A DNA stretch of 64,000 nucleotides. Origin: Deltaproteobacteria bacterium. GTDB taxonomy: Bacteria; UBA10199; JACPAL01. Both the position numbers and the translations under genes were made by a program. The notes beneath the pieces were generated by a model, which had not been told where the DNA came from, searched no databases, and saw nothing but the letters and a program-made list of their open reading frames with translations. Below, in pieces: positions 12,060-21,861 of this stretch (the first letter of the stretch is position 1; the number at the start of each line of letters is the position of its first letter). Where the stretch lies: positions 245,788 through 309,787 of the forward strand of contig JACPAL010000002.1 in the NCBI GenBank assembly GCA_016180855.1, in the 5' to 3' direction.

Positions 12060-15000
12060 ATGATCGACTTATATGGATTCGAAGGGGGACCGATAAGGCT
12101 GCCAGGGGAGCGGTTTGGGTTATTTAAGGGTGTAGATCCCGCAGCCCAACAGGCGGCGCAACGCCAGATGGAAGATCGTCTCAGGCAAGAGGGTCGGAAT
12201 GAGATGGCGGCTGAGGCGGCCGATCAGTGGATCAAGCAAGGGACCGGGCTTCGATTTCAACAGGATGTGCTTGACGGGGCGGATAACCTTGAAGAGGCGG
12301 CCAAAAAGGCCGGATTGGATACCTTTGAGGTCCAGAATCCAAACTGGCGGAACTGGAATTTTAGTATCGATCTGCCGGGCTCCAGGAATGATGATGATAA
12401 TAACGCCTTTTTGGCCCGCTTAAAACAGGCAGTCACCTCGAGCGCTGCGTCGAGCAGTGATCCTAACGGCGAAAAATTTTGGGACAGGCATTATGGATCG
12501 GTCCTCAAATTGATGAAGGAGAAGGCGCCTGATATCAGTGGGAATGCGAAGATGGACGGCTTCAGTGAGTGGAACCGGATTGACGAGAAAGAGAGGGTGA
12601 AGCTCCTTCATTTTGCGGTCGTCGCGAATAATCTTAAGGAGAGGATCAAGATAAAGGAGCATCCCGATATCATACGGCTCAAGATGCGCGTTCGGGCGGC
12701 CGTCGAGAAGATGTTTGATGCGGGCAGTAAGAAGGAAGGGACATTTGATCAAGAGACCGTTGAGAGGGTGACCGAATTCCTCATGAGGCAGAATGCCCCT
12801 GTGGAGGCGCTTGAGTTGGTCTCGGACGTTGCGGCCGAGAAACTGCGCCCCGAAGAACTTAAAGAGAAACTGGCGAAGTATGGTTCGTGGGCCCTGAACA
12901 TCTTCTTTATGAAGGAGATGATCTGGAGTTTTCTGGCCGACACCTCCGTTGGTAAGAAGGTACGGCTCGATCGGGCCGAGCGATGGCTTCAACAGAGATG
13001 GGCCGGAAAATCAGGCCTTGGTCGGTTTTTAACCGGTGTGAGGCCCCCTCCAGGCCTTGCGGCCCATGAGAATGCCGCAAAATTGGGAGGTCTTTTTATA
13101 AGGCCCGATCATCCCGTCCTGGATCCTGCCGTTCAGGCCGATCCGGTCCGACTCCACGCCGCCTTCCGGGATCTCGTTTTTGAAAATATTAACTTGGAAT
13201 GCGATGTGAAGAGGCAACCACGGCCGGGTGAGGTCGAACAGAGGACTCTTAAGTCCCGACAGCAGGCGGCAAGAAAACATGCGACAGCGGCTATAAGGGG
13301 TGAGCCACCCGCCTCTGCAGAGGCATTGTCCTACGACCTTCGTGGTCAGCTACGCCCCGGTGAGACCGTTGTAGCGCCGGAGATTTTAAAGGCCCGCTCA
13401 AAGATAGCGAAGCAACAGCTTGCCGCGATGACTCGTGGTGCGCCCCTTTCGCCTGTCGCAGTCCCTTCAGTTACTACGACACCTGCTCCATCGGCTCCAG
13501 CAACTCCTGAGACACCCGTGGTGTCGGATCCAGCGGCGACTTCAGCCACTACACGGGTTCCAGGCGCCTCGGCCACTTCTTCTGGTGGTAGGGCTAGTGC
13601 AGCGGTATCTGGCGATATAGGTACTCCTCCCCCTCCTCCGGCATCGCCACCTTCTCCGCCTGAAACAACTGTTTTAGGTGAGAGGAGCGGCGTTATTGAA
13701 TTGCCTGAGGCACCTCCCCCGACCGAGCCCCCTGCTGGGGCGCGTGCTCCATCGGGTAGGGCAGTTGCGCTGGCACAGGCAAGCAGTCTTGTCGCCTGGG
13801 TCGTCCTGTTTCGAGGGGCCCATATCGCTGTTGATTTTTTGGCAACGAGCCCCGAGTCACGAGAAAAGGGACATACCGCAATAGACTATGTAGGTGGTGT
13901 GGGCGGCACAGGATTGTTGTTTTATCTCTCTGCAACGAGCAAGAGCCTATTACCATTAGGAGTCGGCTTAGCTGGGATAGGATGGAGGTCAGTTGCCGAT
14001 GATGTGAGTGATTGGTTCTCTGTCGGTGGGTGGGAGAAGCCATCTGGCTGGAAAGGAGTCGCCTTTGAGGCCGGTCTTGACGTCGCCTCTCTAGGTGCCG
14101 GGGCACTTTCGATCGGTTCTGTTTCCGCCGCCAACGCGGCCGCCGTTGCTGCTGGGACGGCAGAGGGTAGCTTTCTCATCGGTGGGGCGAGTGCAACCGT
14201 GGGTGCCGGCGCAGCCCCTTTCGCTGGTGCCATCATCGCAGGTTTTGGGATCGGTTACGCGATTGGAACGGGAGGCGTGAAGGCGGCCGAGGCGCTTGGG
14301 TTTGATCCGATCGGCTGGACGGAGAGGAACGTCTTTGGACGGCTCTTTGGGACACCCCGCGCAAAGTATTCAGAAGGGACGGCGACAACCCCGGGGACCC
14401 GCGTCACGGTCGATGCAAGTGGCAATCCAACAGGCTCCCAGTCCTATACCCAGCTTGAGTTCAAGGGGGATCTTGTTCGTGACGACAACGAGGTGAAGAT
14501 GGTCGATGCCAAATCGGGTCAGGATATCGGCTGGAGCTTCCTCAATCCCGATCGCGTTAAATTCAAGAAATTCGAGATGCCTAAATTGGGAGATGACGGA
14601 AAACCGGTTCGACTAAAGGACAAGCAGGGGAACTTCATTCAGGCAAAAGGCAAGGATAATAAGCTCATGACCGATGGGGAAGGGAAGCCGATCTATGAGA
14701 CCGAAAAGACGGAGAAGCCGATTGAGGTCAGTGCGTTTGAGAGGAACATGAAGATCTTAGAAGAGGTTTATTTGAATAACGGCAAGGCGAATGAGGAAGG
14801 GCAGTATGTCATTACCGACAATGGGCCAGAAAAGGTTCCAGAAGGGAAGACGCCTACCAAGGATGCGAAGAAGCTGTTAGGAAAAGAGGCGTATGCGTTT
14901 GCGCTCGATCGATACATGCGCCGATTGAATAAGTGGACAGAGGATCACCATGGAAATACCACAGAGGGGCACAAATTGATTCTGAAGCTGCTTGATACGA

Positions 15001-15143
15001 AGATGAGGGAGATCAGGCTCCCGGGGAGCGACCAGGTGATCAATGCCCATGATACGGTGAAGGCGACTGAAAGCAAAAAGAAAGGCAGTGGTGGAGGAGG
15101 TGGAAAGCCCCGTCCTGCAGGCGGTGAGGAGTGGACCAATTAG
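12060..15143 (+). CDS. large candidate T3S substrate (1027 aa), translocon-like
   Basis: Strong RBS. N-terminal motif LYGFEGGPIRLPGERFGLFKG is shared with the protein at 16898. A Pro/Ser/Thr/Ala-rich linker is followed by four Gly/Ala-rich hydrophobic helices (e.g. GAGAAPFAGAIIAGFGIGYAIGTGG) and a Lys/Glu-rich C-terminal domain. No signal peptide. Confidence 0.6.
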   Translation: MIDLYGFEGGPIRLPGERFGLFKGVDPAAQQAAQRQMEDRLRQEGRNEMAAEAADQWIKQGTGLRFQQDVLDGADNLEEAAKKAGLDTFEVQNPNWRNWNFSIDLPGSRNDDDNNAFLARLKQAVTSSAASSSDPNGEKFWDRHYGSVLKLMKEKAPDISGNAKMDGFSEWNRIDEKERVKLLHFAVVANNLKERIKIKEHPDIIRLKMRVRAAVEKMFDAGSKKEGTFDQETVERVTEFLMRQNAPVEALELVSDVAAEKLRPEELKEKLAKYGSWALNIFFMKEMIWSFLADTSVGKKVRLDRAERWLQQRWAGKSGLGRFLTGVRPPPGLAAHENAAKLGGLFIRPDHPVLDPAVQADPVRLHAAFRDLVFENINLECDVKRQPRPGEVEQRTLKSRQQAARKHATAAIRGEPPASAEALSYDLRGQLRPGETVVAPEILKARSKIAKQQLAAMTRGAPLSPVAVPSVTTTPAPSAPATPETPVVSDPAATSATTRVPGASATSSGGRASAAVSGDIGTPPPPPASPPSPPETTVLGERSGVIELPEAPPPTEPPAGARAPSGRAVALAQASSLVAWVVLFRGAHIAVDFLATSPESREKGHTAIDYVGGVGGTGLLFYLSATSKSLLPLGVGLAGIGWRSVADDVSDWFSVGGWEKPSGWKGVAFEAGLDVASLGAGALSIGSVSAANAAAVAAGTAEGSFLIGGASATVGAGAAPFAGAIIAGFGIGYAIGTGGVKAAEALGFDPIGWTERNVFGRLFGTPRAKYSEGTATTPGTRVTVDASGNPTGSQSYTQLEFKGDLVRDDNEVKMVDAKSGQDIGWSFLNPDRVKFKKFEMPKLGDDGKPVRLKDKQGNFIQAKGKDNKLMTDGEGKPIYETEKTEKPIEVSAFERNMKILEEVYLNNGKANEEGQYVITDNGPEKVPEGKTPTKDAKKLLGKEAYAFALDRYMRRLNKWTEDHHGNTTEGHKLILKLLDTKMREIRLPGSDQVINAHDTVKATESKKKGSGGGGGKPRPAGGEEWTN

Positions 15144-15156
15144 GTTAGGATAATTT

Positions 15157-21262: not shown

Positions 21263-21273
21263 CGAACAAACGA

Positions 21274-21861
21274 ATGCCGCTGGATGATTCACGTGCCCCC
21301 TTTAAAGAAGAAGAGCGGGGCAAGGTATTGGACCCTAATCCGGAGCGACGCCGGTACCTTGTCGATCTCTTTTATAAATTTGCACAAAACAGGATTTCTC
21401 TTGCCGATCTATCGCGTTTCCCCCGTAAAAAATTGGTCCGGGTCGCAGAGATCGGTTACTTCAAATACAAGTACGGGCGTTATGAGGAGGCCAAGAAGAT
21501 TTTTGAAACGCTCGTCGCGATCGACCATGCGAATCATTACTATCACACAGCCCTCGGGGGCGTTTATCAGAAGCTGGGGCGGTATGTTGATGCGGTGGTG
21601 GAATATACGCGGGCGCACCGTTTAAGACCCAAGGATCTCTGCTCCTACGTCAACCGGGGAGAGATTTATCTCAAACACAAAAACTTCAGAAAAGCGGCCG
21701 AGGATTTCAGGGCCGCCATTCAGCTTGATCCCGACGGGAAAAATCTCTGGGCGAATCGGGCACGGTCGCTCGTTATTGCACTCAAACGGAATCTGGAACT
21801 GAGACAGAGGTTACAGAGAAGGCCGGCTTCTAGGGAGAATCCGGCTCGTCCTCGCCAATAA
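21274..21861 (+). CDS. second class II T3S chaperone of the LcrH/SycD family (TPR)
   Basis: YFKYKYGRYEEAKKIFETLVAIDHANHYYHTALGGVYQKLGRYVDAVVEYTRAHRLRPKD has the same TPR pattern as SycD and the chaperone at 19799. Confidence 0.75.
   Translation: MPLDDSRAPFKEEERGKVLDPNPERRRYLVDLFYKFAQNRISLADLSRFPRKKLVRVAEIGYFKYKYGRYEEAKKIFETLVAIDHANHYYHTALGGVYQKLGRYVDAVVEYTRAHRLRPKDLCSYVNRGEIYLKHKNFRKAAEDFRAAIQLDPDGKNLWANRARSLVIALKRNLELRQRLQRRPASRENPARPRQ

Follow-up and report, generated by a model that had tools for sequence, protein, structure and literature searches.

A candidate late-substrate cassette with SycD-like chaperones beside an injectisome-type secretion core in a deltaproteobacterial genome

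The translocator operons of type III secretion systems (T3SSs) include lcrGVH-yopBD in Yersinia, ipgC-ipaBCD in Shigella, sicA-sipBCD in Salmonella, and scc2-copB-copD together with scc3-copB2-copD2 in Chlamydia, which thus has two LcrH-type chaperones. The concave groove of a class II chaperone such as IpgC, PcrH or SycD accommodates a short N-terminal peptide from each of the two hydrophobic translocators, and the published consensus of this chaperone-binding peptide is P/VxLxxP. Here we analyse a 64,000-nucleotide stretch of a contig from a Deltaproteobacteria bacterium (JACPAL010000002.1; the whole stretch is hereafter the window), in which a cargo region at 12060–21861 encodes five proteins, A1027, B401, C433, D517 and F287, and two tetratricopeptide-repeat (TPR) proteins, TPR1 and TPR2. 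We consider it probable that this cassette is a set of late T3SS substrates of the translocon, tip or filament type.

The cassette resembles the translocator operons in that genes for SycD-like TPR proteins stand amid genes for Sec-less helical proteins beside a T3SS core. One product, A1027, is large and has a central hydrophobic region, as do YopB and IpaB, and the others are hydrophilic and helical, like LcrV and IpaD. The two TPR paralogues recall the chaperone pair of Chlamydia, and a short N-terminal peptide shared by A1027 and C433 recalls the chaperone-binding peptide of IpaB/IpaC and PopB/PopD. The cassette also differs from these operons in several respects. Its products have no sequence or profile similarity to the SseC/YopB/IpaB, YopD/IpaC, LcrV/IpaD, EspA or needle families, and up to four of the five are paralogues with a common C-terminal domain, unlike any known translocator set. 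A1027 is two to three times larger than YopB or IpaB. The shared peptide begins at residue 1 and has a sequence unlike P/VxLxxP. The chaperone genes come after their presumed clients, whereas known ones come before, and both TPR1 and TPR2 carry an extra 40–60 amino acids (aa) at the N-terminus. Finally, the promoters of the cassette are of the sigma-28 type.

In that last respect the cassette is like the FliA-dependent flagellar class 3 genes for flagellin, junction and cap proteins, in which a sigma-28-type -10 element (GCCGATAA) precedes late export substrates; further likenesses are a sigma factor encoded with the export apparatus and substrates that are paralogous, with conserved termini and variable centres. 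An upstream tier of sigma-54 and an enhancer-binding protein (EBP) is known in the flagellar hierarchies of Vibrio, Pseudomonas and Campylobacter, and the locus may be similar in this too. Unlike in flagella, the core is of the injectisome type, with a SctJ lipoprotein rather than FliF and with SctL above its cutoff, the cargo lacks similarity to flagellin, hook, junction and cap proteins, the -35 element differs, and no FlgM was identified. The early-branching 'Myxo' and 'Desulfo' non-flagellar T3SSs (Abby & Rocha 2012, PMC3459982), which we compare by description, share with our system a delta-proteobacterium-like host and a blend of flagellar and injectisome traits. Our locus, unlike those systems, has SctJ, SctI-like and needle-like genes, and that study describes no comparable cargo set.

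Cassette layout and SycD-like chaperones

The cassette comprises seven plus-strand open reading frames (ORFs), which an initial annotation had placed correctly: A1027 (12060–15143), B401 (15157–16362), C433 (16898–18199), D517 (18199–19749), TPR1 (201 aa; 19781–20386), F287 (20399–21262) and TPR2 (195 aa; 21274–21861). The ATG of D517 overlaps the stop codon of C433 and yields 516 aa; a TTG at 18196, one codon before it, would make the product 517 aa long. We compared the window with further metagenomic and metagenome-assembled genome (MAG) contigs (loci L001–L017), and because orthologues occur in the same order in at least six of them (L001, L003, L010, L012, L014 and L017) all seven ORFs are real genes. 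The region consists of two operons, A–B and C–D–TPR1–F–TPR2, because a strong intrinsic terminator closes the A–B transcript after B401 (16652–16681, plus strand; a 13-bp stem with 11 G–C pairs, then a T tract) and the intergenic gaps inside each group are only 12–32 bp. The chaperone genes, formerly described as interleaved with the cargo, are so only loosely: both lie in the second operon, on either side of F287. The roughly 290 bp between the B401 stop codon and the terminator (16363–16651) hold no notable ORF and no Rfam match, and an Rfam search of 10–24 kb of the window found no RNA family. In L001 the corresponding B–C gap is occupied by genes for a ParE toxin and a DUF4143 protein and by a small ORF.

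By their family matches, TPR1 and TPR2 are LcrH/SycD-like and are candidate chaperones of the class II type. Both are small, all-helical proteins with about three TPR motifs (Pfam TPR_1, TPR_2, TPR_8 and TPR_11 match over about 100 residues in each), they are 43% identical to one another, and they are encoded within a T3SS locus together with their presumed clients, in the same operon as C433, D517 and F287 and 9–11 kb past sctT. Against the LcrH_SycD model TIGR02552, whose curated (trusted) NCBIfam cutoff is 104.8 bits, TPR1 scores 78.7 bits over model positions 3–135 of 136 and TPR2 84.5 bits over positions 2–120; the next-best NCBIfam family reaches 32–42 bits, and LcrH_SycD leads by more than 40 bits. 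The class II assignment made initially is therefore upheld as regards the family, which is by far the best for both proteins, but the scores lie below the curated cutoff. Among Protein Data Bank (PDB) entries, SycD and PcrH are matched by TPR1, and SycD, PcrH, AcrH and IpgC by TPR2, with E values of 1e-5 to 1e-7 and behind generic or designed TPR proteins. An alignment with SycD said to hold 'almost residue for residue' proved overstated: identity to a SycD sequence entered by hand is only 24–26%, though the alignment is colinear and nearly gapless and covers SycD residues 11–145.

A shared C-terminal domain, an N-terminal motif and a pore candidate

The five other proteins have no significant Pfam or NCBIfam match and no PDB sequence homologue, and profile searches of these databases detected no relatives among translocator, tip and needle families. 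They had been called unannotatable and dissimilar to known translocators, which these searches confirm; it is also correct that none has a hydrophobic Sec-type N-terminus, and none has a lipobox. They are not five unrelated proteins: C433 and D517 clearly, F287 probably and B401 possibly are paralogues with one C-terminal domain.

The last ~140 residues of C433 and D517 align with 28% identity (E = 6e-20), a similarity by which the two are certainly paralogues in this part of their sequences. The shared domain is about 133 aa long and is predicted to form three helices; the C433 copy occupies residues ~298–433 and ends in SRFNV. D517 consists of a helical N-domain (60–290), a disordered Gly/Ser-rich linker (292–376) and the three-helix C-domain (372–516), which ends in SRFNT, and in its AlphaFold2 model (mean predicted local distance difference test (pLDDT) score 74.9) both domains lie mostly at 85–98. 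A scan of 1.84 billion cluster representatives with the domain profile (full HMMER) returned 101 proteins at E ≤ 1e-3, 66 of them at E ≤ 1e-10, and in nearly all 101 matched clusters the domain is found at the extreme C-terminus. The consensus of the gap-poor alignment reads RK..hI..LL..I..GN.DAI..AL…T…AM..Y..Q…(loop)…L…MN.YS..RQ.I.N.LRD…M.EE..N..KS..D……SR(F/W). Narrow-pattern scans for the domain found one locus in genomes and three in metagenomes, and a word-indexed search with the domain alignment gave no matches. No recurrent family emerged from a Pfam scan of 80 members of the domain family. When a deep domain profile (32 sequences) and an F-family profile were compared with the PDB, no needle, filament or tip structure appeared at E ≤ 10; the 32-sequence profile matched generic helical proteins only (a methyl-accepting chemotaxis protein signalling domain, coronavirus heptad repeat 1 and designed repeats).

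F287 is all-helical and probably carries the shared domain as well, with its C-terminal ~100 aa, ending in IANFRG, forming a divergent copy (hhalign probability 76%, E = 2.2e-5). Five of six F orthologues match the domain profile, colinearly and at their C-termini (E = 1.5e-4 to 2.6e-3); the sixth, in L014, does not reach significance (E = 0.45). An AlphaFold2 model of F287 made from seven sequences has a pLDDT of 44 and is unusable. Of the earlier portrayal of D517 and F287 as long coiled coils, the long helices are borne out by AlphaFold2 secondary structure. B401 is helical too, and its residues 266–348 resemble the first half of the domain (helix 1, a GD-x-D turn and helix 2). A domain-profile search (hmmsearch) of 1067 ORFs drawn from ten sequences including the window detects it at E = 2e-5, and hhalign at E = 1.6e-4 (probability 50%), so that B401 may possibly share this half. 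L012 and L010 have additional paralogues at the B position, which match the profile at E = 1e-15 and E = 2e-7, respectively.

The domain is not restricted to T3SS cargo, for it also occurs outside T3SS loci, in L013 and L015. The L013 protein (P0044; 10001–13021; domain E = 6.5e-20) is large and combines coiled coils and Cys-rich repeats with a signal peptide of the Sec type, and its relatives P0046, P0055, P0083 and P0110 are of the same type; no T3SS genes lie within 10 kb on either side of the P0044 gene. An archaeal origin of these Sec-signal homologues was considered but not adopted, as the neighbouring DusB and RlmD look bacterial.

A second feature unites A1027 and C433. A1027 begins MIDLYGFEGGPIRLPGERFGLF (MxxYGFE…PGERFGL) and C433 begins MELWGFEREGETVPGERFGLF (MELWGFE…PGERFGL), giving a common motif at residue 1, M-[DE]-x-[WYF]-GFE-x(5-7)-[PT]G[ED]xFGL. 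The same motif opens the A proteins of two loci (L001 and L003) and the C-type proteins of four (L001, L005, L010 and L014); it is present in 19 of 83 aligned family members and on other neighbouring proteins, encoded at L003 149–1573 and L010 5938–7026. D-type proteins have a conserved start of their own, M-S-T-N-x-P-x-V-x-V-like, as do F proteins. Because this residue-1 peptide recurs on otherwise unrelated proteins of one locus, it is best explained, by analogy, as an export or chaperone-docking signal. The L003 149–1573 product (474 aa) begins MDFWGFEWHGQLGTGERFGL, has no family match and lacks the C-terminal domain; it is a candidate for a further substrate or effector.

A1027 is the best candidate for a membrane-inserting (pore) component because it alone has a long, Gly/Ala-rich hydrophobic region with several segments. 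Behind its N-terminal motif follow a helical region, a P/S/T/A linker, the Gly/Ala hydrophobic region and a Lys/Glu-rich C-terminal region. The composition of the linker (456–560; 24% P, 12% S and 13% T) agrees with the P/S/T-rich linker reported initially. Gly makes up 18% and Ala 19% of residues 561–765, three stretches of which (610–627, 675–701 and 703–740) carry no charged residue, and Kyte–Doolittle window peaks fall at 566–596 and 711–740; by this crude prediction A1027 has the at least two central membrane-spanning segments, without a Sec signal, that characterize SctE, the major hydrophobic translocator (YopB/IpaB/SipB/EspD). The Gly/Ala hydrophobic helices formerly ascribed to both A1027 and C433 are clear in the former, while C433 has just a Gly-rich stretch (258–276) and one hydrophobic helix pair (304–328). 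No Pfam, NCBIfam or PDB match was found for A1027, and neither it nor the other proteins match the SseC/YopB/IpaB profile (PF04888) at E ≤ 0.1 in the Pfam and NCBIfam searches. BLAST aligns only the first 24 residues of A1027 with its L001 counterpart, yet the domain architecture is retained, and the hydrophobic region is kept in all three A proteins (window, L001 and L003) even though their sequences cannot be aligned. The protein encoded at the A position of the distant locus L012 (4294–6447) has 717 aa and an HExxH-like motif (AHEAAH) but lacks a Gly/Ala hydrophobic region. The payload at the first cargo position may differ between lineages.

Promoters, secretion core and conservation

Each operon is preceded by a sigma-28-type promoter candidate on the plus strand: P_A (12005–12032; CAACTCGA-N13-CCGATAA), 28 bp before the ATG of A1027, and P_C (16849–16876; CAACTCGG-N13-CCGATAA), 22 bp before that of C433. 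Scanned with spacers of N10–16, the motif CAACTYRR-N12/13-CSGATAA has two matches in the 64-kb window against 0.00 expected, and these are the two plus-strand sites before A1027 and C433. It also precedes the A orthologues of L001, L003 and L017, the C orthologues of L001 and L003, and the solitary family member of L015. The -10 half of P_A and P_C equals the sigma-28 consensus, GCCGATAA (PMC12784957). A matching sigma factor is encoded inside the T3SS core (1521–2357, plus strand; Sigma70 r2 and r4 domains), with WhiG (150.3 bits) and TIGR02479 FliA_WhiG (148.9 bits; cutoff 189.6) as its best models and other subfamilies below 100 bits. Promoters and sigma factor together make it probable that the T3SS transcribes both operons with a sigma-28-like factor of its own.

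Upstream of the sigma gene, by 28 bp, lies a sigma-54-type promoter candidate (TGGCAC-N5-CTGC; 1479–1493, plus strand) with one mismatch to TGGCAC-N5-TTGC; matches with at most two mismatches number 59 in the window against 44 expected, a slight enrichment. Beyond the cassette, on the minus strand, are genes for an FHA-domain sigma-54 EBP (21830–23236), convergent with TPR2, and for its partner, a Ser/Thr protein kinase with PEGA repeats (23255–25702). Because a sigma-54-type site precedes the sigma gene and this conserved FHA activator and kinase adjoin the cassette, the arrangement suggests a sigma-54-to-sigma-28 cascade like that of many flagellar systems. A further sigma-54-type site, before C433 (TGGCAC-N5-TTGA, at 16787), was set aside in favour of the conserved sigma-28-type motif: besides a single mismatch it shows overlap with a sigma-70-like match, and it is not conserved in L001 or L003.

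The cassette begins 1.3 kb downstream of sctT, the last gene of a plus-strand T3SS core at 2317–10709 (SctI-like, FliG_C-like, SctL, SctN, SctO, SctP, SctQ, FliO-like, SctR, SctS and SctT). By its best NCBIfam matches, the non-flagellar models SctJ, SctL, SctN, SctR and SctT, the core is of the injectisome type; SctL and SctR exceed their cutoffs, and SctN scores nearly equally with the SctN and FliI clade 2 models. The location of the cassette right after sctT, the non-flagellar nature of the core and the preservation of this position in L001, L012 and L017 support the assignment of the module to the T3SS; of the six other loci with the conserved gene order, four adjoin a T3SS core directly. 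Flagellum-like parts of the core are a FliG_C-domain protein (2846–3841), the FliO-like ORF and the FliA/WhiG-like sigma factor, and SctQ is split into a FliM-like protein (7222–8148) and a separate FliN/SepQ_C ORF (8145–8528). In contigs with the same sequence, the segment just upstream of the window (L009 2207–3599) encodes a 92-aa helical protein, a Gly/Pro-rich 186-aa protein ending in IQNMRGM and a 136-aa TPR protein whose matches include the CdsG needle-chaperone family, followed by sctJ. This module is probably a needle with its co-chaperone, the needle protein being unusually long.

Relatives of the cargo proteins are few: searches of a 5.8-billion-protein index give only four for C433 and seven for F287, all of them in metagenomes without a label or in MAGs labelled Deltaproteobacteria. 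The order A–B–C–D–TPR–F–TPR–(EBP)–(kinase) recurs in L001, L003 and L017, and L010 and L012 show it with additional paralogues. The cassette again follows sctQRS(T) genes in L001 and L012, the EBP gene has the same position in L001, L003, L010, L012 and L017, and the EBP–kinase flank is retained in L003, L010 and L017. Conservation is graded along the locus: between the window and L001, global identity is 78% for SctR and the EBP, 76% for TPR2, 66% for SctT, 65% for TPR1, 63% for the kinase, 51% for F, 44% for D, 42% for C, 24% for A and 21% for B. Parts that are exposed and touch a target would be expected to diverge in this way.

The borders of the cassette vary. AAA_14/DUF4143 ATPase genes and toxin–antitoxin pairs (PIN/Phd, ParE, DUF4258 and PemK/MazE) occur at different borders in different loci, at L001 2467–3134 and 7908–9800, L010 3214–4368 and 7078–7640, L015 11385–11859, L016 9273–9834 and L017 897–1558, and in the window an AAA_14/DUF4143 gene lies between sctT and A1027 (10701–12005, minus strand). 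We rejected the DUF4143 ATPase as a conserved member of the cassette: the copy in the window shares only 24% identity with that of L001 and lies at a different position, so the two are separate insertions into a hot spot. Chromosomal housekeeping genes fill the remainder of the window. A PrkA/DUF444/SpoVR triad (28311–32865), a stress module of the YeaG–YeaH–YcgB type, lies a few kilobases from the T3SS regulators, and three ORFs of 755, 867 and 269 aa without a Pfam match (41833–47404) break an otherwise complete trpEGD–CFBA operon between trpD and trpC.

Alternative readings and significance

The reading that we favour can be put as a sequence of steps. A sigma-54 promoter served by the adjacent FHA activator and Ser/Thr kinase would drive the sigma gene, and the core-encoded FliA/WhiG-like factor would then transcribe both operons from P_A and P_C. 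The N-terminal peptide of A and C would act as an export or chaperone-docking signal, with TPR1 and TPR2 holding the substrates export-competent in the manner of class II chaperones. Once exported, A would insert into a target membrane as a pore former, and C, D, F and perhaps B would come together through their C-terminal three-helix domain to form a tip, filament or translocon scaffold on the end of the needle. What the sequences show is the gene order and its conservation, the families of the core and chaperones, the shared domain, the N-terminal motif and the conserved promoter motif; export, the pairing of chaperones with clients, the sigma cascade and the role of each protein are inferred from these, and any single role is much less certain than the set as a whole. 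Of the initial description as an undescribed secreted-substrate set, the T3SS linkage, the SycD-like chaperones and the lack of known relatives hold, and the sigma-28-type promoters can be added.

Several results weigh against a late-substrate set. Pfam, NCBIfam and PDB profile searches gave no homology to a known translocator, tip or needle, and a needle-like match to PrgI (E = 0.4 over a helix-turn-helix, with a six-sequence profile) was discarded when it was gone with the 32-sequence profile. Both TPR proteins fall short of the 104.8-bit LcrH_SycD cutoff, P/VxLxxP is not literally present in the cargo proteins, and the -35 half CAACTYRR departs from the canonical TAAA element of sigma-28. 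The window contains no secretin, SctV, SctU or SctD. Co-occurrence with a T3SS core is likewise partial: the cassette lies beside a core in L001 and L012, but in L014 and L016 C–D(–TPR–F–TPR) stands amid housekeeping genes with no core within 10 kb, and the domain is present in the Sec-signal, Cys-rich proteins of L013 and in the solitary gene of L015. As to homology, tip, translocon and ruler proteins evolve too fast to be traced between T3SS families, and it is usual, not exceptional, for translocators to lack sequence similarity across families (PMC3459982); the lack of homologues is therefore less surprising, and a set without them is to be expected in a new lineage.

The cargo could instead be divided, with C, D, F and perhaps B forming the axis of an extracellular filament or sheath on the needle, similar to the EspA filament or, more remotely, to the flagellar series of junction, filament and cap, rather than a membrane translocon, and A as a separate effector or pore. 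The C-terminal helices would then form the polymer core and the variable middles its surface, and sigma-28 would mark a late, filament class of genes. Two clear and up to four possible paralogues with a conserved C-terminal helical domain and variable centres suit such a structure, as do the conserved N-termini that D-type and C-type proteins each possess, and the core retains FliG_C-, FliM- and FliO-like proteins besides the FliA-like sigma factor. The ends of F (IANFRG) and of the 186-aa protein (IQNMRGM) resemble needle C-termini, and sigma-28-type promoters are the class that drives flagellins (PMC12784957). Yet the PDB profiles return no needle, EspA-type, flagellin, hook, junction or cap structure, Flagellin_N is touched by only one of the 80 family members scanned (E = 0.002), the long disordered Gly/Ser linker of D (292–376) would be unusual for an axial subunit, and domain relatives with Sec signals occur outside T3SS loci. 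We regard this division as unlikely. It is highly improbable that some of the proteins (B, D and F, for example) stay inside the cell in an accessory or regulatory role, for instance as a gatekeeper, ruler, anti-sigma factor or sorting-platform adaptor: SctP-, SctO- and SctL-like genes are already in the core, no SctW gatekeeper or FlgM family match exists in Pfam or NCBIfam, and B, D and F share a domain with C, which bears the same N-terminal signal as A. What speaks for such a role is that the three are helical, lack transmembrane segments and have genes that adjoin those for chaperones and regulators, and that sigma-28 systems normally have a secreted anti-sigma factor, none being identified at this locus.

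In L014 and L016 the cassette is separate from a T3SS core, its domain occurs elsewhere in Sec-signal proteins and in a solitary gene, and its TPR proteins score below the LcrH_SycD cutoff. All this would be accounted for if the cassette were no T3SS cargo at all but a free-standing surface, adhesion or toxin module whose TPR partners are generic; the toxin–antitoxin pairs and DUF4143 ATPases at its borders suggest a recombination hot spot that would fit as well. We think this decidedly unlikely. The proteins in the window have neither Sec signal nor lipobox, LcrH_SycD leads every other TPR family by more than 40 bits, and a sigma-28-type promoter, which precedes the solitary L015 gene too, ties the cargo to the core sigma factor. 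Moreover, the cassette lies beside a core in the window, L001 and L012 and beside the EBP–kinase pair in six loci, and the L014 and L016 contigs span just 46 kb and 18 kb, so a T3SS could lie elsewhere in those genomes. A late-substrate set thus remains our preferred reading of the cassette.

What is new here is a domain family, a paralogous cargo set that contains it, a sequence-defined N-terminal motif and sigma-28-type promoters in an injectisome-type system with FliG-, FliM- and FliO-like parts. A bolder version, in which an injectisome-type T3SS run by flagellar logic (sigma-54, then sigma-28, then late substrates) exports paralogous three-helix-domain subunits that form a new filament or translocon, each led by a sequence-defined N-terminal signal, we put forward tentatively and think unlikely. 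If it were true, this signal would be unlike the sequence-degenerate signals of known T3SSs, and the domain, present in Sec-exported proteins of other uncultivated organisms too, would be a module of general use in cell contact or membrane insertion. In either case the domain family, of about 100 clusters, can now be searched, the N-terminal motif could mark further substrates computationally, which is not possible for classical T3SSs, and the promoter motif links distant cargo genes to a T3SS-encoded sigma factor. The sigma-28 link and the FliG-, FliM- and FliO-like parts of the core bear on the evolution of injectisomes from flagella. Tip, filament and translocon proteins determine what a T3SS can touch and puncture, vary more than any other part of the apparatus and are known from only a few pathogen families; the cassette offers a defined candidate set of them for a deep-branching environmental T3SS lineage. 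Its host is uncultivated and labelled Deltaproteobacteria by NCBI, and the target could be a protist, a bacterium or something else.

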